From a virus (Duplodnaviria; Heunggongvirae; Uroviricota; Caudoviricetes), in the IMG/VR virus record IMGVR_UViG_3300012007_000007, positions 163,434 to 222,157 of that record: a stretch of 58,724 bases of DNA; one strand, 5' to 3'. The notes below the pieces were generated by a model, which ran no database searches, was not told the DNA's origin, and was given only the letters and a program-made list of their open reading frames with translations. Made by a program: the position numbers and the translations under genes. This document shows positions 84-17,002 of the stretch, piece after piece (within the stretch, counting starts at the first letter, position 1; each line of letters opens with the position of its first letter).

Positions 84-202
84 GATAACTCCTTGTTGAG
101 AACTTATGGCCCATTCAGGTCTGTAAGTAATATAGCAATTTATCACGCGAGTGAATCACCAAGTTGGTGAAAATTGTTGTAAATTTTTATTTACATATTT
201 CG

Positions 203-275
203 AGCTGACGGTAGGAATCGAACCCACTCATGCAAAGTTTTGCAGACTCGCCCGTTCCCACTTCGGCACGTCAGC
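203..275 (-). tRNA. tRNA-Cys(GCA)
   Basis: Cloverleaf by eye: GCTGACG/CGTCAGC acceptor, loop CTGCAAA, TTCGATT T-loop, U73; weak anticodon stem. Confidence 0.85.
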
Positions 276-284
276 ATAAAGTAG

Positions 285-366
285 TCCCGCAGGCAGGACT
301 CGGACCTGCACGCCACTAGGCACTAGTTCCTAAGACTAGCGTGTCTACCAGTTCCACCACTGCGGG
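285..366 (-). tRNA. tRNA-Leu(TAG)
   Basis: CCCGCAG/CTGCGGG acceptor, CTAGT-CTTAGGA-ACTAG anticodon arm, long variable arm, T-loop TCCGAGT. Confidence 0.9.
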
Positions 367-371
367 AGATA

Positions 372-442
372 TTGGCCAGCCAGGCTTCGGACCCAGCCCT
401 GATGGCTCAAAACCACCCGTGCTACCGCTACACCACAGGCCA
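372..442 (-). tRNA. tRNA-Gln(TTG)
   Basis: TGGCCTG/CTGGCCA acceptor, GGTGG-TTTTGAG-CCATC anticodon arm. Confidence 0.85.
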
Positions 443-448
443 TCATAG

Positions 449-532
449 TCCGGAAGGCGGGACTTGAACCCGCACGGAGTATGCCTCCAACGGATTTTAA
501 GTCCGCATTGTCTACCATTCCAACACTACCGG
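449..532 (-). tRNA. tRNA-Leu(TAA)
   Basis: GCGGA-CTTAAAA-TCCGT anticodon arm, long variable arm, GCGGG-TTCAAGT-CCCGC T arm. Confidence 0.9.
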
Positions 533-536
533 ATAG

Positions 537-619
537 TCCCGAGAGCAGGACTTGAACCTGCACGTCTTGCGGACAGGGGATTTTGAGTCCTCCGCGTCTA
601 CCAGTTCCGCCATCACGGG
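537..619 (-). tRNA. tRNA-Leu(CAA)
   Basis: GAGGA-CTCAAAA-TCCCC anticodon arm, long variable arm, canonical T arm. Confidence 0.9.
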
Positions 620-624
620 TCTTA

Positions 625-695
625 TTGGGGACAAAGGTTTCGAACCTCTAATTCCAGAGTCAGAGTCTGGCGTGCTACCGTTACACCAGTCCCCA
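625..695 (-). tRNA. tRNA-Gln(CTG)
   Basis: TGGGGAC/GTCCCCA acceptor, CCAGA-CTCTGAC-TCTGG anticodon arm. Confidence 0.9.
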
Positions 696-705
696 TCGTT
701 TTTAG

Positions 706-778
706 CTCTACCCCCAGGCTACGACCCTGGAACCTCCCGGTTAACAGCCGGGCGTTCTACCAGTTGAACTGGGGTAGA
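706..778 (-). tRNA. tRNA-Asn(GTT), atypical (C8; T-loop GTCGTAG)
   Basis: TCTACCC/GGGTAGA acceptor, CCCGG-CTGTTAA-CCGGG anticodon arm, G73. Confidence 0.85.
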
Positions 779-1633
779 TTATGTATATACACTTACCAGT
801 GAAAGGTCAGATGGATAATGTGTTCTTTTACCAACCGTCTTGCCGCTTAGATATTTTGGTATGAATTTCTTAAATGTGTAATACAAAGCCACTTTGGATA
901 TTTTTAATTCATTAGAAAAATCCTCTAGCTTTGAATAATTACCGGAATGATACCTATCCCATAATTCCCTGGCACGTTGAATTGCTGCATTATGTAGTTC
1001 AATCCTTGGTCTTTTAGTGATTTTCCCGGAGACGGTATTTATGCCAGATGATGCATTCGCTGCACATATTTTGCCACACGGTTGACCCTTTTGTTTTGCA
1101 TAAGCAAATATTTTACTTCTTATAGAAGTGCTCTGCCCATGATACAAATTTCTTCCACGGACCCATTCTTTAGCATCTGGCGGCATTCGGAATACCTTAG
1201 ATTCACCGGTTATATAATTGGTATACCACCGGGTTCCGTAATGTGAATTTCGCTGGCCCCGTTGTGTTATTGCCGTTGTATACCCAACTACTTTAGCAAA
1301 TTGACAACGCAATGTTTCGTATATTCTGGCATTTATATATCGACTGTGGTTATCATTAGTACTACGCATTCTCCAAAACGCAAACATCATTTTACGGTAT
1401 TCATTTGATTCGGGTGGATACAATTTCGTTAATAGCCAATGGCATATAAAGTGTTCTTTAGCAGTAAGCAACGCTCGGTTGCATAATCGGTCTACACCAC
1501 CCAATGCCTTTGGTATAATATGGTGTAGTTCATAGTATTGGCCATGTTTTTGTTGCCAACGACGCTGCTCATAATCAGCTTGCGCTCGCAAAACGATACT
1601 TGCGTATATTCTATTGTAATTCATAACAAACAT
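779..1633 (-). CDS. Free-standing HNH homing endonuclease with C-terminal HTH-like region
   Basis: ELHHIIPKALGG...RALLTAKEHFICHWLL HNH motif; AT-rich; inside the tRNA cluster; TATAAACT motif at 1660-1667 upstream. Confidence 0.85.
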   Translation of the reverse strand: MFVMNYNRIYASIVLRAQADYEQRRWQQKHGQYYELHHIIPKALGGVDRLCNRALLTAKEHFICHWLLTKLYPPESNEYRKMMFAFWRMRSTNDNHSRYINARIYETLRCQFAKVVGYTTAITQRGQRNSHYGTRWYTNYITGESKVFRMPPDAKEWVRGRNLYHGQSTSIRSKIFAYAKQKGQPCGKICAANASSGINTVSGKITKRPRIELHNAAIQRARELWDRYHSGNYSKLEDFSNELKISKVALYYTFKKFIPKYLSGKTVGKRTHYPSDLSLVSVYT

Positions 1634-1671
1634 CCGGCAATGTTTTATGTTCTGCCTTCAGTTTATAGGGA

Positions 1672-1733
1672 ATGCTAGGGTAAGACTATGTCAAACATAG
1701 GTCAGGCAGTGCCGGCTGCTTGTCCCCTAGCAC
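1672..1733 (-). other. Branched stem-loop between tRNA-Tyr and the HNH gene
   Basis: GTGCTAGGG...CCCTAGCAT closing stem enclosing GCAG-CCGGCA-CTGC and CTATGT-TTG-ACATAG hairpins. Confidence 0.5.
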
Positions 1734-1796
1734 TACTTAAACTACAACATGTTTATCCAATTTATATAATTATATGAATTGATAGAATTTACTTAA

Positions 1797-1881
1797 TGCC
1801 AGCGGTTGGACTCGAACCAACGAAAGCAGTTTAATGCGAGAGGGTTACGGCCTCCTGGAATTGCCACTATCCGACGCTGGC
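1797..1881 (-). tRNA. tRNA-Tyr(GTA), C33 variant
   Basis: GCCAGCG/CGCTGGC acceptor, GGAGG-CCGTAAC-CCTCT anticodon arm, long variable arm. Confidence 0.88.
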
Positions 1882-1882
1882 T

Positions 1883-1952
1883 TGGTGGAGCATTTCGTAT
1901 GCAAGCCCCCAGCATTAGAGCCAAGCTCAACAGGCACCATCTATGAAGCCCC
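1883..1952 (-). ncRNA. 70-nt tRNA-like RNA with Ala-type ends (GGGGC...GCTCCACCA), no canonical cloverleaf
   Basis: Ends pair G1:C, G2:C, G3:U, G4:C, C5:G followed by A-CCA; fills the gap between tRNA-Asp and tRNA-Tyr. Confidence 0.55.
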
Positions 1953-1962
1953 ATATTTTTAA

Positions 1963-2036
1963 CGATGCCTGAGAGATTCGAACTCTCGAATGTCGGTTAG
2001 ACAGACCGATGTGTTAGGCCACTTCACCAAGGCACC
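1963..2036 (-). tRNA. tRNA-Asp(GTC), U37 variant
   Basis: GGTGCCT/AGGCATC acceptor, TCGGT-CTGTCTA-ACCGA anticodon arm, G73. Confidence 0.85.
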
Positions 2037-2044
2037 ATTCTTAG

Positions 2045-2117
2045 TGCCGCCGGGAGGAATCGAACCTCCGACACGGGGATTTTCAGTCCCCTGCTCTACC
2101 GACTGAGCTACAGCGGC
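2045..2117 (-). tRNA. tRNA-Phe(GAA)
   Basis: Canonical cloverleaf, GGGGA-CTGAAAA-TCCCC. Confidence 0.95.
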
Positions 2118-2127
2118 AAACTGTTCG

Positions 2128-2202
2128 TCCGCGACTCTCGACTTGAACGAGAACATCTCCGCCTTATCAGAGCGGCGTGTTAACCAATTACACCAGACGC
2201 GG
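2128..2202 (-). tRNA. tRNA-Ile(GAT)
   Basis: CCGCT-CTGATAA-GGCGG anticodon arm, TCTCG-TTCAAGT-CGAGA T arm. Confidence 0.88.
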
Positions 2203-2206
2203 ATAG

Positions 2207-2279
2207 TAGCGCCGCCGGGATTCGAACCCGAGTTCCATGAATGAAAATCACGTGTCCTAGGCCTCTAGACGACGGCGCC
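2207..2279 (-). tRNA. tRNA-Glu(TTC)
   Basis: GGCGCCG/CGGCGCT acceptor, GTCTAGAGGCCTAGGAC D arm, CGTGA-TTTTCAT-TCATG. Confidence 0.92.
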
Positions 2280-2294
2280 ATATTAGTTTGTTCA

Positions 2295-2371
2295 TAGTCA
2301 CTGAGAGGCTCGAACTCCCGACCTCCGCGTTCGTAGCGCGGCGCTCTGAATTCCAACTGAGCTAAGTGACT
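2295..2371 (-). tRNA. tRNA-Arg(ACG)
   Basis: AGTCACT/AGTGACT acceptor, CCGCG-CTACGAA-CGCGG. Confidence 0.92.
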
Positions 2372-2375
2372 GTAG

Positions 2376-2449
2376 TGGAACGTGACGGGGCTCGAACCCG
2401 TAACCTCCTCGTTGCGAACGAGGCGCTCTTCCAATTGAGCTACACCCCC
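2376..2449 (-). tRNA. tRNA-Ala(CGC) with 1-nt acceptor-stem bulge
   Basis: 5' GGGGGTG, 3' CAC-G-TTCC-A; CCTCG-TTCGCAA-CGAGG; G3:U70 retained in the bulged register. Confidence 0.88.
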
Positions 2450-2457
2450 AAAGTTAC

Positions 2458-2531
2458 TGGAACGTGACGGGACTCGAACCCGTAACCTCCTGAATGCAAA
2501 TCAGGCGCTCTTCCAATTGAGCTACACCCCC
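2458..2531 (-). tRNA. tRNA-Ala(TGC) with 1-nt acceptor-stem bulge
   Basis: Same body as 2376-2449; CCTGA-TTTGCAT-TCAGG. Confidence 0.88.
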
Positions 2532-2539
2532 ATAGTTAC

Positions 2540-2615
2540 TGGACACATATCGGGCTCGAACCGATGACCTCCTGCCTGCCAGACAGGCGCTCTACCAAAA
2601 CTGAGCTAATGGCCC
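2540..2615 (-). tRNA. tRNA-Ala(GGC) with 1-nt acceptor-stem bulge, different sequence body
   Basis: 5' GGGCCAT, 3' ATG-T-GTCC-A; CCTGT-CTGGCAG-GCAGG. Confidence 0.88.
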
Positions 2616-2677
2616 ATAAAGAAAAACACATCCGGAATTTCAATCTGCAGCAACGCTGCTCGAACGCTGCACTTTAG

Positions 2678-2751
2678 TGGAACGTGACGGGGCTCGAACC
2701 CGTAACCTCCTCGCTGCCGGCGAGGCGCTCTTCCAATTGAGCTACACCCCC
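2678..2751 (-). tRNA. tRNA-Ala(GGC) second copy, C33 variant, 1-nt acceptor-stem bulge
   Basis: Same body as 2376-2449; CCTCG-CCGGCAG-CGAGG. Confidence 0.82.
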
Positions 2752-2765
2752 AAACGGTTAAACGG

Positions 2766-2798
2766 AAAGGGCGGTTGCCGCTGATGCAACCGCCCTTT
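2766..2798 (-). terminator. Intrinsic terminator directly upstream of the first tRNA-Ala (attenuator terminator)
   Basis: Perfect 13-bp inverted repeat AAAGGGCGGTTGC-ATCAGCG-GCAACCGCCCTTT followed by CCGTTT on the minus strand. Confidence 0.8.
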
Positions 2799-2845
2799 TC
2801 GTCTCTTGTAAACCTTTCGTCTACCTGGAACTAGGTTGCATCAGC
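2780..2845 (-). promoter_or_regulatory. Antiterminator helix of a putative attenuator
   Basis: Perfect 12-bp inverted repeat: minus-strand GCTGATGCAACC (2845-2834, last leader codons) pairs with GGTTGCATCAGC (2791-2780, terminator 5' arm and loop). Confidence 0.75.
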
Positions 2846-2938
2846 CTCCGCGTGTTCTGCGAAATCCAACACGGCAAAATAGCGGTTACCCTGTGCGGCA
2901 CCCGCTAAGTTACAAATATTGTTGAATTGCTTCTGCAT
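2831..2938 (-). CDS. Putative attenuator leader peptide MQKQFNNICNLAGAAQGNRYFAVLDFAEHAEADAT (35 aa, 8 Ala)
   Basis: Translated by hand (not in the ORF track); AAGGAA ribosome-binding site upstream of ATG; last codons coincide with the antiterminator strand. Confidence 0.72.
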   Translation of the reverse strand: MQKQFNNICNLAGAAQGNRYFAVLDFAEHAEADAT

Positions 2939-5807: not shown

Positions 5808-5812
5808 CTTAG

Positions 5813-5885
5813 AGCGGGAAAAGGGATTCGGACCCTCGGCATCGACCTTGGGAAGGTCGCGCTCTGCCAACTGAGCTATTCCCGC
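5813..5885 (-). tRNA. tRNA-Gly(CCC)
   Basis: GCGGGAA/TTCCCGC acceptor, CGACC-TTCCCAA-GGTCG, U73; TTTTGCTATATTTG motif 8 nt upstream. Confidence 0.92.
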
Positions 5886-6405: not shown

Positions 6406-8514
6406 TCACTTGAGCAGGTCCAGGAACTGCTGCAGGGTTTCCGGGGTGTATACCGTTATGTCCTGGCCGGCACGCTTCAGCTGGTCTATCTTCTGCACCT
6501 TGGAAGGCCCGGCGTTTTCGCCCATGAGGACCACGTTGCACTTCTTGGTTATTGACGAGCAGATGGTGCCGCCGTTGGCCACAACCATGTCCTTGAACAC
6601 ATCGCGGTCCAGCTTCTCGAAGGTGCCGGTCATGATGCACACCTTCCCGGCGAGCTTGGCCGACTGGACTTCCTTCACTTGCTGGGCTACCCCCCACGTG
6701 GCAAGTTCGGCAAGGTCGTCCGCATACTTGGTCACGAACTCGCAGAACTTCCCGGATATTACCGGGGAAATCCCGGCCTTCTGCGCACGGTAGCAGAAGT
6801 CGTCGATGAACCCGGTAGGCTCCCCGTCAGTGTAGAGACGGATGAACCCGCCGGAATCCTTGACGCACTGGGCCACCGCCGGGGCGACCTGGTGTCCGAT
6901 ACCCGGGATGGAGAACCCCTCGATGAGCTGGTGCAGGTAGTTGGACTTGGACTTCTCGATGCTCTGCGTGAGCTTCCTCGCGCCGGCCTCGGTCTTGCCG
7001 CATGCATCCATGATGTCCTGTTCAGTAAGGACGTAGAAGTCACTGAAGAAATGGAGCTTCCCCGCCACCAGCAGCTGTTCCACTATCGACTCGCCTATGC
7101 CCATGATGTTCATGCAGTCGCGGGACACGAAGTTGGTGAGTTTTCCGCCAATCTGTGTCTGGCATTCCTCGTTCGAGCATACCCATGCCACGAGTTCCCT
7201 TCCCTCGGAATTAACCTGGCAAGCCAGGTCTCCGCCGCAGCAGGGGCACTTCACCGGGCGCAGGTAACGGGAATAGGCCCTTTCCCCTTCGGTGCTCGGC
7301 ACCCACGGACTGACATGCGGAATCTTGTCCTTGTCGCACTTGGCACGTTCGACCTCGTAGGTATCCTTTGAACGCCCGGTCTCGGTACACTTCACCAGTT
7401 CCGGGATGATTTCGCCCGCCTTGCGGATTACCACGTGGCAACCCCGGTGGAGCCCGAGGTAGTCGACGAGGTCCCAGTTGTGGAGGGAGCAACGCGATAC
7501 CGTGGTCATGGCCAGGTGGACAGGCCTGATGATGGCGACGGGCGTAATGGCGCCGGACATGCCGATTGACTCCTCTATGTTGAGAAGTTCAGTCTCCTTC
7601 TCTTCCGGCGGGAACTTGTATGCACGGTAGAAGTTAGGGGACTTCGCGGTGTAGCCGAAGCGATTCTGGTCCAACTTGTCGTCCACCTTCAGCACCACGC
7701 CGTCGATGGTGTAAGGCTGTTCGAAACGCTTCTCGCGCATCTTCTCGGCCAGGGAGACTACTTCGTCTACCGTATCGGCAACCCAGTGCTCCGGTACCTC
7801 GAAACCCATCTCGGCGAGCGTATCGATGTCCTTGGCCTGGCTTCCGTTCGGACTCCCTTCCACGATAAGGTACGACACGAAGGACAGCCCGCGCGACTCG
7901 ACCTCGTCAGGGTCATGTGACTTGAGGGTTCCGGCAGCGCCGTTCCTGGGGTTGGCGAACGCCTTCTTGCCGTCGGCGATGAGCTGGTCGTTTATTGGTT
8001 CAAAGTCCGCGTACTTCCATACGGTCTCTCCGCGTATCTCCACCTTGCCGGGCAACGGAATCCTGGTAAGCACTCCCTTGACCCGAAGGGCGTTCTCGAA
8101 GACCGAATCGCCGACGTTGTCCTTGCCGCGGGTAACCGCGTCCACCAGCTGGCCGTCCCGGTACTTGAGCGCGAGGCCGAGGCCGTCGAGCTTGTATTCG
8201 CCCTCCAGTCGGGTGACGCCGCGGTTGAACATCATCATCGCCCATTCGCGCGTCTCCTCGATACCGTTGGAGTTCGCGATGGAAATCATGGGAATCTCGT
8301 GACGGACCTTGCGGAAACCGTCAGCCCCGTCCTCCACGTGACGCGTGGGGGAGGTGTCGAGGATGAAGTTCGGGTTCGCCGCCTCGAACTCCTTGAGCTG
8401 AATGTAGTTCCTGTCGTAAACGTCGTCCGGTACGGACGACGTGCCCGCGGCATATGCACTTGCCCACTGGGAAAGTACACAGCACATTTCCGTGTATTGC
8501 TTGAAGTCTATCAT
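6406..8514 (-). CDS. ligA: NAD+-dependent DNA ligase
   Basis: YKLDG adenylation motif, AVTRGKDNVG, FANPRNGAAG, DGVVLK, AYKF, OB fold, Cys zinc finger, HhH and C-terminal BRCT. Confidence 0.97.
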   Translation of the reverse strand: MIDFKQYTEMCCVLSQWASAYAAGTSSVPDDVYDRNYIQLKEFEAANPNFILDTSPTRHVEDGADGFRKVRHEIPMISIANSNGIEETREWAMMMFNRGVTRLEGEYKLDGLGLALKYRDGQLVDAVTRGKDNVGDSVFENALRVKGVLTRIPLPGKVEIRGETVWKYADFEPINDQLIADGKKAFANPRNGAAGTLKSHDPDEVESRGLSFVSYLIVEGSPNGSQAKDIDTLAEMGFEVPEHWVADTVDEVVSLAEKMREKRFEQPYTIDGVVLKVDDKLDQNRFGYTAKSPNFYRAYKFPPEEKETELLNIEESIGMSGAITPVAIIRPVHLAMTTVSRCSLHNWDLVDYLGLHRGCHVVIRKAGEIIPELVKCTETGRSKDTYEVERAKCDKDKIPHVSPWVPSTEGERAYSRYLRPVKCPCCGGDLACQVNSEGRELVAWVCSNEECQTQIGGKLTNFVSRDCMNIMGIGESIVEQLLVAGKLHFFSDFYVLTEQDIMDACGKTEAGARKLTQSIEKSKSNYLHQLIEGFSIPGIGHQVAPAVAQCVKDSGGFIRLYTDGEPTGFIDDFCYRAQKAGISPVISGKFCEFVTKYADDLAELATWGVAQQVKEVQSAKLAGKVCIMTGTFEKLDRDVFKDMVVANGGTICSSITKKCNVVLMGENAGPSKVQKIDQLKRAGQDITVYTPETLQQFLDLLK

Positions 8515-8571
8515 ATACATAAATATAGCAAAATGCATAAACATTCGTATGCACTGGACTAGTTTCATAGT

Positions 8572-9285
8572 ATGCAAATAGATATAGACTACTTCGGATG
8601 GCCAGAAAAGTTCACCTATATGGTAGAGTTCAACAACGCCATTTTCGAGAGCCTGGAACCTTCCCGGGAGGACCTCTTTATAAGACGAATGAATGAGGCA
8701 TTTCCCGGATTTTCCGCCAAAGTCATACCGAACATGCTTGGATATCCCATGGGATGCGTCATTGTGTACCGTGGAATACTGGACGATTGCGCTCTCGACG
8801 AGCTGACGGAACGTGCCGAGGCATTCTCCTACGCCACTACAGACCATGCGGACAAGAACGTAATCATATTCAAGCCGAACAACGCTCCATCCGGGCTACC
8901 ACCGGAAAGCCGATACATTCACCTGAGCCCGGTAGACTCCCTCGATTCCACCGGCATACGGTGCAAGTCTTCCGGGAAATTCGAGACATACGAGCCAAGA
9001 ATATACCTTTTCCCACTTTCATCACTGGTAGACCCGCACTCCCCACAAGACAAAATGTATGATGAACTTGAGAAAGAATGCATAAAAATAGCCAGGCTGT
9101 TCAACGACACCTACCTGAAGAAAAAAGTCATCGAGCAACGAGAAATCTACTATATGTACCTGGTAGACCTCCCAACAGCATTCCAGCGTTATGACGATTT
9201 CTCGTTCGACAGGCCATCAGTGTACATATTGAATAACATCACACCGGACAAAGTCACCAAAATAGGAGTTCTCGAAAATTCTTAA
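8572..9285 (+). CDS. Hypothetical protein, possibly with an ADP-ribosyltransferase-like C-terminal domain
   Basis: Clean AT-rich ORF; YIHLSP...GIRCKS...YEPRIYLF loosely resembles ART-fold signatures (weak). Confidence 0.5.
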   Translation: MQIDIDYFGWPEKFTYMVEFNNAIFESLEPSREDLFIRRMNEAFPGFSAKVIPNMLGYPMGCVIVYRGILDDCALDELTERAEAFSYATTDHADKNVIIFKPNNAPSGLPPESRYIHLSPVDSLDSTGIRCKSSGKFETYEPRIYLFPLSSLVDPHSPQDKMYDELEKECIKIARLFNDTYLKKKVIEQREIYYMYLVDLPTAFQRYDDFSFDRPSVYILNNITPDKVTKIGVLENS

Positions 9286-16303: not shown

Positions 16304-17002
16304 ATGCAGAACGTATTCGAATCGATGATGGACATGGATGCGGCCCTCGCCATCTGCGAGGCAATAGGCGATTCCCAGGAACCCCAGGAAACTACAGCCG
16401 AACTGGACCCGGAAAGGTTCAAGGCCTACGCCAAGTCCCCGTCCGACATAGACGAGGCCACCCTCAGGGACATAGCCGCGGTCATCGACGGCAAGGACGA
16501 CCTGTCGCCTCCCCCGGACAACCACGTGCCGGTTGCCACGCCCAGCACCCTGGACAGGCTGCTCAACTCCGTCACCGTCGTCTACATCACCGACAACGAC
16601 TACCCGGTGGCCGCGGCCAACCTGATAGACCCCACAAAGGAGGACTACAGGGGAATCGTGCCAATCAAGTACTACAGCCTCCTGAGCGGGTACAACCTGG
16701 ACGGGAGGGTGCAACAGGAATTCTTCGCCGTAGCCGAGGAATACCGGAACAGGGGAGTCGGGACGGAGCTCAGGGCCCAGATTAACGCGCTGGACACCCC
16801 TACCTTCATCGTGGTCGACAGCACCGACAGGGACTGCATAGAGGGGCTCGCCAGGAGCGGGTACCAGTTCGTCGCCCAGGTGGCCGACGAGACCGCCGTC
16901 TACCCGGTGCAGCTGTGGGTGGACAACGCCGATGCCGACCCGGCTTCCCCGGAAAACCCGGAAGAACCCGCGTTCCTCGACGACGCGGTCGAATTGATGT
17001 AG
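16304..17002 (+). CDS. GNAT-family acetyltransferase-like protein
   Basis: FFAVAEEYRNRGVGTELR acetyl-CoA-binding motif A; start MQNVFES. Confidence 0.75.
   Translation: MQNVFESMMDMDAALAICEAIGDSQEPQETTAELDPERFKAYAKSPSDIDEATLRDIAAVIDGKDDLSPPPDNHVPVATPSTLDRLLNSVTVVYITDNDYPVAAANLIDPTKEDYRGIVPIKYYSLLSGYNLDGRVQQEFFAVAEEYRNRGVGTELRAQINALDTPTFIVVDSTDRDCIEGLARSGYQFVAQVADETAVYPVQLWVDNADADPASPENPEEPAFLDDAVELM

Follow-up and report, generated by a model that had tools for sequence, protein, structure and literature searches.

Why should a phage keep four tRNA-Ala genes whose acceptor stems each contain one nucleotide too many? The genes in question belong to a giant phage from rumen or gut with a 222-kb genome (G000), and lie within a window of 58,724 nucleotides, the whole stretch of that genome that was analysed. 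All four (window 2376-2751, minus strand) have eight nucleotides, not seven, from the T stem to A73. Looping out the fourth of the eight gives seven of seven acceptor pairs in every gene, with G1:C72, G2:C71, G3:U70 and A73, and puts the extra base on the 3' side of the acceptor stem, where it separates pair 5:68 from pair 4:69. The genes are:

2678..2751, minus strand: tRNA-Ala(GGC) copy 1, GGGGGUG body; 3' strand CAC-G-UUCC; A73 at 2678, extra G at 2683, trailer CUA

2540..2615, minus strand: tRNA-Ala(GGC) copy 2, GGGCCAU body; 3' strand AUG-U-GUCC; A73 at 2540, extra U at 2545, trailer GUA

2458..2531, minus strand: tRNA-Ala(UGC), GGGGGUG body; A73 at 2458, extra G at 2463, trailer GUA

2376..2449, minus strand: tRNA-Ala(CGC), GGGGGUG body; A73 at 2376, extra G at 2381, trailer CUA

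A preliminary description had already given the eight-nucleotide strand, the sequences and coordinates, the anticodons (CGC, UGC and two GGC) and the first place of these genes in the operon, and all proved correct on re-reading; the computed pairing likewise bears out its claim that a looped-out base restores the three top pairs and A73 in both bodies. In most respects the genes resemble the canonical tRNA-Ala of bacteria and phages. They form a cloverleaf with a D-loop GG and clean 5-bp T stems (ACGGG/CCCGU, AUCGG/CCGAU), the 5' acceptor strand has seven nucleotides followed by U8 and A9, and the NGC anticodons sit in ordinary 7-nt loops with U33 and A37; the GGGGGUG body carries three of these anticodons (CGC, UGC and GGC), which together cover the GCN codons. 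ARAGORN and Rfam RF00005 both call tRNA-Ala on the minus strand (2679-2751 GGC, 2541-2615 GGC, 2459-2531 UGC, 2377-2449 CGC), the latter with 46.7-61 bits against a gathering score of 29. They differ from the canonical form in the additional 3'-strand nucleotide, which interrupts the helix after 4:69 and leaves none of the four with an uninterrupted 7-bp acceptor stem, and in lacking the minor bacterial Ala determinants G4:C69 and G20: pair 4:69 is G:U in three genes and C:G in one, and position 20 is A or U. No CCA is encoded after the genes, and G000 encodes a CCA-adding enzyme (genome positions 148120-148497). We define the bulged mobile class discussed below by an 8-nt 3' acceptor strand, G3:U70, A73 and location in a phage or mobile tRNA array, and the four genes possess all of these.

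The presence of A73, G1:C72 and G2:C71 depends on the A at 2678, 2540, 2458 and 2376 being position 73, and both ARAGORN and Infernal (RF00005) impose a 7-nt 3' strand on their tRNA-Ala calls. Under this imposed reading the GGGCCAU gene acquires two mismatches (G3xG70 and C4xU69), and its minihelix energy is -0.5 kcal/mol, compared with -7.6 kcal/mol when bulged; it has G3:U70 in the bulged register only. The three GGGGGUG genes acquire a G4xG69 mismatch and a discriminator C73, with energies of -6.5 kcal/mol bulged and -5.4 unbulged. The earlier claim that the unbulged register is mismatched therefore holds for both bodies, with the qualification that GGGGGUG still keeps a G3:U pair and is just ~1.1 kcal/mol worse, so that for the GGGGGUG genes the case for the bulged register comes from the trailer motif and homologues rather than from energy. 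CUA directly follows the discriminator in 17 of the 27 other tRNAs of G000, and the Ala genes match this pattern (A|CUA or A|GUA) only with the A as position 73. Among homologues, CCA is encoded in the genome right after the A in GGGCC-type phage genes (L010, L021, L031, L039, L066, L074, L086, L093, L096, L102, L110, L111 and L123), and immediately 3' of the A in the GGGGG-type L300 (GGGGGCG, CGC-A-UUCC). The bulged register is thus supported by the GGGCCAU energy, the trailer motif, the encoded CCA of homologues and the compensatory changes in relatives described below. Treating the three GGGGGUG genes as mismatched rather than bulged, with G1:C72, G2.U71, G3.U70, G4xG69 and C73 as the true register, would agree with what both programs report, retain G3:U and cost little stability; it would nonetheless put C73 in place of the Ala determinant, set these genes outside the genome-wide N73-CUA trailer pattern, run against L300 and separate them from the fourth gene of their operon, which is readable in bulged form only, and we find it scarcely credible. 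Assembly or sequencing error is ruled out by the occurrence of the bulge in four genes, two bodies and related phages.

The surroundings of the four genes provide an internal control, as the tRNAs that follow them in the cluster have ordinary 7-nt 3' strands. The features concerned are:

202..2371, minus strand: 13 further tRNAs downstream in the same cluster (Arg, Glu, Ile, Phe, Asp, Tyr, Asn, Gln, Leu, Leu, Gln, Leu, Cys)

2616..2677, minus strand: 62-nt spacer from Ala copy 1 to copy 2, also present in the relative L002

2760..2795, minus strand: terminator-like GC-rich hairpin of 10 bp (2795-2786 with 2778-2769), then UUUCCGUUU; 8 nt upstream of the first tRNA-Ala

2831..2938, minus strand: leader ORF of 35 codons, 8 of them Ala codons, immediately upstream of the Ala genes; ATG at 2938, AAGGA at 2950-2946; kept in L002

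2970..2998, minus strand: promoter-like TTGCAA-17-TACAAT before the leader ORF, a consensus match only

The L002 copy of the hairpin is identical except for one additional loop base, and the Ala-rich leader ORF and hairpin ahead of the Ala genes were counted among the pointers to a benefit. A terminator-like match at 2616-2602 was discarded as spurious, as it falls within the following tRNA. Phage tRNA islands, that of G000 included, also contain tRNA look-alikes. Across the 222-kb genome, none of the 27 other tRNAs needs a bulge, and at most four of 714 non-Ala tRNAs in the other loci fetched read better with one. Pfam and PHROG matches among the neighbouring ORFs of the window (ligase, homing endonuclease, transposase, patatin-like protein and M48 peptidase) included no family relevant to tRNA-Ala.

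Related phages reveal how the bulge has been maintained. There are two bulged tRNA-Ala in L002 and three in L003, against four in G000, and the GGGCCAU gene (2540..2615) is the ortholog of bulged GGGCCAU genes in both. The bulge has been kept in these two relatives despite compensatory changes in the helix around it (4:69 C:G to U:A, 6:67 A:U to U:A and 7:66 U:A to G:C). The same gene is also orthologous to a canonical Ala(GGC) in L004, a more distant relative (67% ligase identity) in which all three tRNA-Ala are canonical. In the UGC and CGC slots the body found in G000 differs from that of L003, yet it too is bulged, and unbulged twins of the G000 UGC/CGC body occur in L119 and as a remnant in L002. 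In an alignment of 52 bulged sequences, which average just 69% column identity, the interrupted helix is 98% paired with two to four pair types at each of 4:69, 5:68, 6:67 and 7:66; sliding the 3' partners by one column as a control leaves 40-45% paired over the entire structure. Because the patterns used in the homologue search fixed part of the 3' strand, some of the conservation at and next to the bulged base follows from how this set was collected. The earlier suggestion of selection rather than error is upheld by the two bodies in G000, the compensatory changes, more than 60 distinct homologous cases and the CCA encoded in the bulged register, and on this sequence evidence bulged tRNA-Ala almost certainly form a distinct structural class, both real and selected.

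The bulge is not specific to G000, but recurs across many phage and mobile tRNA clusters. The more than 60 distinct bulged tRNA-Ala (about 60 of them beyond G000, L002 and L003) come from viral contigs and from bacterial and archaeal genomes, in the latter from densely packed tRNA arrays, and the elements concerned span many bacterial phyla and the haloarchaea, Haloarcula amylolytica JCM 13557 and H. argentinensis DSM 12282 being cultured carriers of such arrays. In a subset sampled without bias, about a tenth of phage tRNA-Ala genes are bulged. The position varies somewhat (after 67, 68 or 69), the bulged base may be U, G, A or C, and at least three acceptor-stem contexts are represented. A bulged gene is the sole tRNA-Ala found in 11 of 16 near-complete phage genomes, while the other 5 have a canonical tRNA-Ala alongside; in some clusters canonical and bulged tRNA-Ala(UGC) stand side by side. 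All 12 cellular matches fall within dense arrays (3-26 tRNAs per 8 kb), and the dispersed housekeeping tRNA-Ala of five carrier cells, from five different lineages, are all canonical. The bulged class is therefore common in the tRNA arrays of phages and mobile elements and absent among the cellular tRNA-Ala checked. The preliminary description had raised the idea that the bulge mirrors an unusual host tRNA-Ala, so that the phage merely carries a copy. Phage tRNAs are indeed often of host-gene origin, but the canonical genes of the five carriers, the confinement of cellular matches to arrays, the scatter of the class over unrelated phyla and archaea, and the canonical tRNA-Ala of the related L004 make a host-lineage trait very unlikely.

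A full-text literature search turned up no account of phage tRNA-Ala with a bulged acceptor stem, and this is apparently an undescribed tRNA variant. It is probably hidden in existing annotations, because standard tRNA finders place the 3' end in the wrong register and give C73 with mismatches. Scanning viral contigs for exact copies of the GGGGGUG 5' half or of the GGGGGUG 3' end gave no match. A limited BLAST search of the bulged tRNAs against 50,697 GenBank phage records gave no cultured-phage example among the records opened, which have canonical tRNA-Ala throughout except for one tRNA-Ile (Myxococcus phage Mx1); the closest relatives in cultured phages (DSS3_MAL1, Phosso, IME-SM1, syn9, EFGrNG, Wakanda and CcrBL9) are ordinary tRNA-Ala.

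The nearest structural parallels are the irregular cluster tRNAs, comprising 8/4 and 9/3 allo-tRNAs, (8/4) tRNA-Ser, tRNA-His, tRNA-Sec and a selC* tRNA-Cys with bulge A51a (Mukai et al. 2017, PMC5389517). Like the G000 genes, these have a non-canonical acceptor/T branch and occur in phage tRNA clusters and rumen bacteria, and one subgroup has a single bulged nucleotide. However, those tRNAs extend the acceptor stem on both strands while shortening the T stem, where the bulge of that subgroup is also located (51a). In G000 the T stem remains at 5 bp and the 5' strand at 7 nt, the added length being confined to the 3' strand; nor does PMC5389517 report an Ala isotype. Refolding of the G000 acceptor/T branch into an 8/4 allo-tRNA architecture is ruled out by the 5-bp T stem. 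A side group of homologues (L007, L018, L056, L071, L078, L082 and L218) may approach 8/4. Mitochondrial tRNA-Ala with a displaced identity pair, G2:U71 in Drosophila and G5:U68 in human (PMC6451123), are likewise natural tRNA-Ala with an acceptor helix unlike the universal G3:U70 arrangement, but there the G:U pair moves and the cognate AlaRS has co-evolved, while in G000 G3:U70 is in place and there is no dedicated AlaRS.

How, then, might such molecules function? No AlaRS was found in G000 or in 46 other phage records with bulged tRNA-Ala, and the bulged gene is often the only phage tRNA-Ala; they are therefore probably ordinary decoders charged by the host AlaRS, a role that we regard as likely. 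We envisage that the four genes would be transcribed within the phage tRNA operon, that their 3' ends would be trimmed and CCA added after A73, for which the phage has its own CCA-adding enzyme at hand, and that host AlaRS would then charge them and GCN codons be decoded. The bacterial Ala identity set consists of A73, G2:C71, G3.U70, G4:C69 and G20, and recognition by AlaRS depends on helix geometry at G3:U70 (PMC9976931); the first four pairs alone suffice as an AlaRS substrate (Shi et al. 1992, as cited in PMC11392972). An extra base would be tolerated in tRNA-Ala in particular because AlaRS takes no account of the anticodon and recognizes nothing beyond A73 and pairs 1:72 to 4:69, the insertion lying directly beneath this block. 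Charging may be less efficient, because 4:69 is C:G or G:U instead of G:C and G20 is absent. The bulge would also carry a cost, since an unstable acceptor stem beginning GG is a known trigger of CCACCA tagging and decay (PMC10275265). The substrates of that reaction (Wilusz 2011, Kuhn 2015, as reviewed in PMC10275265) share with the G000 tRNAs a 5' GG, a weakened acceptor helix and nucleotides that can loop out. As presented there, they are defective RNAs marked for decay, whereas here the irregularity is conserved, and CCA rather than CCACCA is encoded after A73 in many phages.

The benefit may lie in protection from a factor that attacks or reads the acceptor stem, which we put forward tentatively, as the leading possibility. 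The preliminary description had already suggested that the bulge could block a nuclease or toxin, or alter handling by AlaRS or EF-Tu. A flipped-out base would alter the surface or geometry of the acceptor helix, the phage tRNA-Ala would become poor substrates for host or competitor enzymes that read it, such as a tRNase or a toxin modifying the 3' end, and alanine decoding would carry on during infection. Enzymes of this kind exist: CdiA-CT from Bp1026b cuts tRNA-Ala within the acceptor stem (PMC9086364), the toxSAS FaRel2 inspects the acceptor stem (PMC11559606), and Cas12a3 clamps the acceptor stem and CCA tail (PMC12851939). Phage tRNAs that escape defence are also established, with anticodon-loop variants in mycobacteriophages that evade anticodon nucleases (PMC10264068), T5 tRNA-Lys against PARIS (PMC11464382) and tRNA-Tyr against retron Eco7 (PMC11555353). 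The bulged tRNA-Ala resemble these in being phage-borne, in being unlike cellular tRNA, here as judged against the five carrier genomes, at a site that a protein can read, and in the presence of tRNA maintenance genes in the same phage; they differ in that the known cases involve anticodon-loop changes and a known nuclease, while in G000 it is the acceptor stem that is altered and the protection would be an inferred one. We know of no nuclease or toxin directed against the tRNA-Ala acceptor stem in the host of G000. An all-against-all BLASTP of the ORFs from 64 bulged and 310 control loci gave no family in more than 5 bulged loci, and the families shared among up to 5 reflect phage relatedness. 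The occurrence of canonical tRNA-Ala beside bulged genes in 5 of 16 phages is not what would be expected if the canonical form were useless during infection. Taken together, a real class of tRNA-Ala acting as host-charged decoders with a protective bulge is the best explanation of the sequences that we can offer, and its chances of being right as a whole seem to us evenly balanced.

The alternative that fares best is that the bulge is close to neutral and marks a lineage: a one-base insertion would have arisen long ago in mobile tRNA-Ala, spread with arrays whose accessory tRNAs are under relaxed selection, and would confer no specific benefit. With the top four pairs sufficient for AlaRS, the insertion would do no harm, and it lies exactly where the enzyme should be indifferent. 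The coexistence of both states among close relatives (L004 against L003, L002 and G000; L119 and the L002 remnant against G000), the phages that hold both forms, the want of a partner gene among neighbours of bulged loci, and the somewhat variable position and base would all suit such a history. A neutral single-base bulge should be easily lost, however, and this one persists at 69% mean column identity with compensatory changes on both sides. It was also retained in G000 although two Ala genes changed body, it occurs in at least three acceptor-stem contexts and in the sole tRNA-Ala of most near-complete phages (11 of 16), and it is missing from every cellular housekeeping tRNA-Ala examined. 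We hold neutrality to be doubtful, if quite conceivable.

Rather less probable is that the bulge tunes kinetics or portability, loosening or kinking the helix under G3:U70 and thereby easing handling by the AlaRS of many hosts, or by EF-Tu, RNase P or the phage CCA-adding enzyme. Elements passing from host to host would profit from such tuning, and the class is indeed found across many bacterial phyla and archaea; host enzymes must serve where the phage has no AlaRS, G000 and some other phages have a CCA-adding enzyme and no encoded CCA, and AlaRS recognition is sensitive to the geometry of the G3:U70 helix (PMC9976931). Yet cells, which are under the strongest selection for efficient charging, never use the bulge in the five genomes checked, and canonical tRNA-Ala is already charged via G3:U70 across the domains of life. 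A role outside decoding, with the bulged RNAs as decoys or as alanine donors for an off-ribosome reaction, might be read into the clusters shared by canonical and bulged tRNA-Ala(UGC), the look-alikes in phage tRNA islands and the aberrant anticodon arms of some bulged-acceptor genes (L163 6325-6400), but is quite unlikely given one G000 body furnished with three anticodon arms that cover GCN codons, ordinary anticodon loops with U33 and A37, and the bulged gene as the only tRNA-Ala in most near-complete phages.

The selected class of host-charged decoders proposed here adds to tRNA biology a conserved natural variant, in which a base is looped out below the G3:U70 region in tRNA-Ala of mobile elements from bacteria and haloarchaea. 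Its interrupted acceptor helix would have to be accepted by AlaRS, EF-Tu, RNase P, the CCA-adding enzyme and the ribosome alike, and the bulged genes and their unbulged twins form a natural substrate series for tRNA biochemistry. The question that this raises is why mobile elements keep the bulge and cells do not. It is conceivable, though on balance doubtful, that the bulge is a pan-domain mark of mobile tRNA-Ala, hiding them from a widespread immune or competitor enzyme that inactivates tRNA-Ala by way of the acceptor stem, or letting a phage factor tell its own tRNA-Ala from those of the host. For phage-defence research the variant provides a lead toward factors that target the acceptor stem, and if the pan-domain reading were true, phage defence in bacteria and archaea alike would have a major, so far undiscovered front at tRNA-Ala and its acceptor helix.

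The window covers the final 58.7 kb of a viral genome of 222,157 bp (G000; linear and about 78% complete according to its IMG/VR record), whose 31 tRNA genes all lie on the minus strand and form an island at 154-169 kb of the genome. Four alanine tRNA genes come first in the tRNA operon, after an Ala-rich leader ORF and a strong hairpin, both strongly conserved in the related phage L002. In window coordinates the features are:

2377-2449, minus strand: tRNA-Ala(CGC), called by ARAGORN and Rfam; A73 at 2376, extra base G2381
2459-2531, minus strand: tRNA-Ala(UGC), called by ARAGORN and Rfam; A73 at 2458, extra base G2463
2541-2615, minus strand: tRNA-Ala(GGC) with the GGGCCAU body, called by ARAGORN and Rfam; A73 at 2540, extra base U2545
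2679-2751, minus strand: tRNA-Ala(GGC) with the GGGGGUG body, called by ARAGORN and Rfam; A73 at 2678, extra base G2683
2760-2795, minus strand: 10-bp GC hairpin followed by a U-rich run, just 5' of the first tRNA-Ala
2831-2938, minus strand: leader ORF of 35 codons, 8 of them for Ala, with a Shine-Dalgarno-like AAGGA

Both ARAGORN and Rfam impose 7 nt between the T stem and the discriminator. Read in this unbulged register, the three genes with the GGGGGUG body (named, like the GGGCCAU body, after its acceptor 5' strand) have G1:C72, G2.U71, G3.U70, a G4xG69 mismatch and C as discriminator, and the GGGCCAU gene has two mismatches and no G3:U70. With A as position 73, all four have 8 nt after a clean 5-bp T stem, and looping out the fourth of these gives seven pairs with G1:C72, G2:C71, G3:U70 and A73. 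The preliminary description had reported this 8-nt 3' acceptor strand and the recovery of G1:C72, G2:C71, G3:U70 and A73 once one base is looped out, which are confirmed, and its sequences, coordinates and anticodons for the four genes are all correct. Minihelix energies are -7.6 (bulged) versus -0.5 kcal/mol (unbulged) for GGGCCAU and -6.5 versus -5.4 kcal/mol for GGGGGUG, a gap so small that energy alone leaves the register of the latter three genes unsettled.

The 3' end of the genes provides further evidence. CCA is encoded in none of the tRNA genes here (window 202-2371 and 5812-5885; G000 154-169 kb), and at 148120-148497 G000 has a gene for a CCA-adding enzyme (PolyA_pol family, PF01743, 93.7 bits). 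Directly 3' of the discriminator, 17 of the 27 non-Ala tRNAs of G000 have CTA/CUA, the others having TA, CGA, TTA or TGA, and in the Ala genes the corresponding reading, A|CUA or A|GUA, requires A as discriminator. Many tRNA-Ala genes of unrelated viral contigs also have the CTA trailer, which may be a 3'-processing signal tied to G000's own CCA-adding enzyme. CCA is encoded right after the A in GGGCC-type tRNA-Ala of 13 loci in other viral contigs (L010, L021, L031, L039, L066, L074, L086, L093, L096, L102, L110, L111 and L123) and in a GGGGG-type gene of L300 (GGGGGCG/CGC-A-UUCC-A-CCA; 5' strand/3' strand, with the extra base between hyphens and the A of position 73); with the 3' end thereby set, the 8-nt strand is no artefact of sequence reading. 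Energy, trailer motif, relatives and the CCA encoded in homologues thus make four lines on which the bulged register is the favoured reading of these sequences.

The four genes have normal anticodon loops, with U33 and A37, fit the Rfam tRNA definition and carry the major Ala determinants. What they lack is an uninterrupted 7-bp acceptor stem and the minor determinants G4:C69 and G20. The 8/4 and 9/3 allo-tRNAs differ (PMC5389517), and the 5-bp T stem and lone lengthening of the 3' strand exclude that identity for the G000 genes. Elsewhere in the island, a fifth "tRNA-Ala(CGC)" call outside the window (G000 158475-158552, minus strand, 77 nt) has the acceptor GUCGCGG/CCGUGGC with A73, G4:U69 in place of G3:U70 and an over-long anticodon arm; its neighbour, a "tRNA-Asn(AUU)" call at 157297-157372, is similarly odd. 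A homing-endonuclease-like ORF of 284 aa (PHROG 655, E 2e-29; window 779-1633, minus strand) lies in the tRNA cluster between tRNA-Asn and tRNA-Tyr.

Related phages were found through the NAD-dependent DNA ligase at window 6406-8847. L002 (87% ligase identity) carries GGGCCAU/AUG-U-GUCC-A and GGGUCAU/AUG-U-AUCC-A, and L003 (71%) has both of these and GGGCCUG/CAG-U-GUCC-A. The extra base keeps its position in both relatives while pairs 4:69, 6:67 and 7:66 change on both strands, which supports the earlier suggestion of selection rather than error. L004 (260 kb, 67% ligase identity) has three tRNA-Ala, all canonical, one of which (GGGCUGU/AUG-GUCC-A) is a clear ortholog of the G000 GGGCCAU gene, an unusually long D loop being common to both. 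The order Ala, Ala, Ala, Arg(ACG), Glu, Ile, Phe, Asp, Tyr is common to L003 and G000; the GGGCCAU gene is retained in G000, and the GGGGGUG body, identical in its three genes except for the anticodon arm and one T-loop base, occupies the UGC and CGC slots and an extra GGC copy heading the operon, so that two Ala genes have a different body that is again bulged. This body has an un-bulged twin in L119 (GGGGGUG/CAC-UUCC-A-CCA). In the slot of the first G000 copy, L002 has a tRNA-like remnant without the extra base (16330-16403; GGGGGCG/CGC-UUCC-A), with a GGC anticodon loop and a weak D stem, that is called by neither Rfam nor ARAGORN, and the gap in the alignment of G000 with L002 coincides exactly with the bulged G. 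Whether the G was gained on the G000 line or dropped from the L002 remnant, the GGGGGUG body exists with and without it. Three bulged tRNA-Ala of L003 (15415-15703) have C at position 33, where the G000 genes have U33.

The bulged class extends well beyond these relatives. With a search pattern constrained only at the T loop and at GUCCA, the latter at the longer spacing, about 45 among the 120 matches listed from viral contigs are tRNA-Ala that pair perfectly after one base is looped out; further viral-contig scans revealed the G000 type (G4:U69, purine bulge) in L395 and L300 and a bulged G4:C69 type in L466. At least 64 distinct bulged sequences were collected, and their D, anticodon and T arms differ greatly. 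When 52 of these were aligned, pairing in the interrupted acceptor helix came to 98.1%, with CG, GU and UA at 4:69, CG and GC at 5:68, AU, CG, GC and UA at 6:67, and GC, UA and CG at 7:66; a one-column shift of the 3' partners brings whole-structure pairing down to 40-45%. The extra base of the collected set is almost always U with G on either side. Conservation near the bulge is partly built in, because the patterns used to find the sequences already prescribed some of the 3' strand and only pairing sequences were kept; independent checks on the class come from the anticodon, from CCA where it is encoded and from the variation of pairs 5:68 to 7:66. One subgroup has the extra base one step lower (GGGCUCG/CG-U-GGUCC). 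In 237 viral loci that had been retrieved because they matched other patterns, incidental tRNA-Ala number about 23, of which about 2 are bulged (L351 and L511), and the bulged share of viral tRNA-Ala is, very roughly, 1 in 10. At most 4 of 714 non-Ala tRNAs in the first locus set are better read with a bulge, two of which have an Ala-type bulged acceptor, and this rarity marks the trait as specific to tRNA-Ala and not as a property of generally sloppy tRNAs.

Several variants were seen within or beside the class. A "tRNA-Phe(GAA)" in L047 (10405-10478) combines a bulged Ala-type acceptor with A3:U70 (GGACCAG/CUG-U-GUCC-A) and may be a bulged Ala body that has switched identity. The 3' acceptor strand of a tRNA-Met adjoining a bulged tRNA-Ala in L171 (1539-1612) likewise contains an extra U (GGGGUGC/CG-U-CACCC-A). 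The bulged tRNA-Ala of L007, L018, L056, L071, L078, L082 and L218 begin GGGCCAUG or GGGCCGUG and have a poor T stem (AGGGG/CCCAC); pairing of G8 with the last base of this stem could give an 8/4-like branch besides the bulge. Tracts in L163 (6325-6400; a rumen Lachnospiraceae MAG) and L113 (3538-3614) are tRNA-like, each combining an acceptor stem of the bulged Ala type with an unusual D region (GGGACUGC…); in L163 the anticodon loop has 9 nt, and ARAGORN makes no call. The phages L023 (6765-6838) and L064 (44-117) carry a bulged tRNA-Ala(AGC) alongside a canonical tRNA-Ala(UGC); A34 of the AGC anticodon would require deamination to inosine.

A pattern scan of 185,579 species genomes returned at least 12 bulged tRNA-Ala among the 119 scored matches listed, in carriers that include two Haloarcula isolates, an Asgard MAG, Gemmataceae, Tepidisphaeraceae, Promineifilaceae, Chitinophaga and rumen Lachnospiraceae genomes. 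All 12 of those listed sit in dense arrays (3-26 tRNA genes per 8 kb). Five carrier genomes were searched whole, using a covariance model derived from the bulged sequences, and the dispersed tRNA-Ala among the fetched matches are all canonical, with a 7-nt strand, G3:U70 and A73. These observations and the canonical genes of L004 disfavour the proposal that the bulge mirrors an unusual host tRNA-Ala, and indicate instead that it belongs to mobile tRNA-Ala genes, with gains or losses inside phage lineages.

One body combined with three different anticodon arms (CGC, UGC and GGC) is understandable only as a decoder. No AlaRS (PF01411) was found in G000, and none of 46 viral records with bulged tRNA-Ala encodes one (16 of them at least 90% complete), so charging would fall to the host enzyme; the bulged gene is the sole tRNA-Ala found in 11 of the 16 near-complete genomes and has a canonical one alongside in 5. 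We consider it probable that the bulged tRNA-Ala are decoders charged by host AlaRS. This enzyme does not read the anticodon, and in the EF-Tu ternary complex protein backbone contacts on the 3' acceptor strand end at about position 67. The bacterial Ala identity set comprises A73, G2:C71, G3.U70, G4:C69 and G20 (PMC9976931), and AlaRS charges substrates of the first four acceptor pairs alone (Shi et al. 1992, as cited in PMC11392972). In the G000 genes the insertion sits directly below pair 4:69, and may lie between the AlaRS and EF-Tu footprints; alanine would be the isotype able to bear a bulge because its synthetase ignores the anticodon and needs only the first four pairs.

Why mobile elements keep the bulge is a matter on which we can offer a tentative explanation, that it might protect tRNA-Ala from a factor reading the acceptor stem. 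Against this, we know of no cognate enzyme for bulged tRNA-Ala, no partner gene recurs near them, and some phages have canonical copies as well. Moreover, CCACCA tagging is known to be triggered when an acceptor stem starting GG is weakened (PMC10275265). The main rival, which we think less likely, takes the bulge as a nearly neutral mark that is tolerated in an old lineage of mobile tRNA-Ala. Protection is preferred because factors acting on the acceptor stem exist, phage tRNA escape has a precedent and the Ala genes stand first behind the Ala-rich leader and hairpin: CdiA-CT Bp1026b cuts tRNA-Ala within the acceptor stem (PMC9086364), toxSAS FaRel2 inspects this stem (PMC11559606), Cas12a3 clamps it together with the CCA tail (PMC12851939), and small structural changes let phage tRNAs escape anticodon nucleases (PMC10264068).

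A full-text literature search brought up no account of phage tRNA-Ala with a bulge in the acceptor stem, and the tRNA-Ala relatives in those GenBank phage records examined after a BLAST search were all canonical. The bulge is supported as a selected feature, which is of real interest for tRNA and phage-defence specialists.
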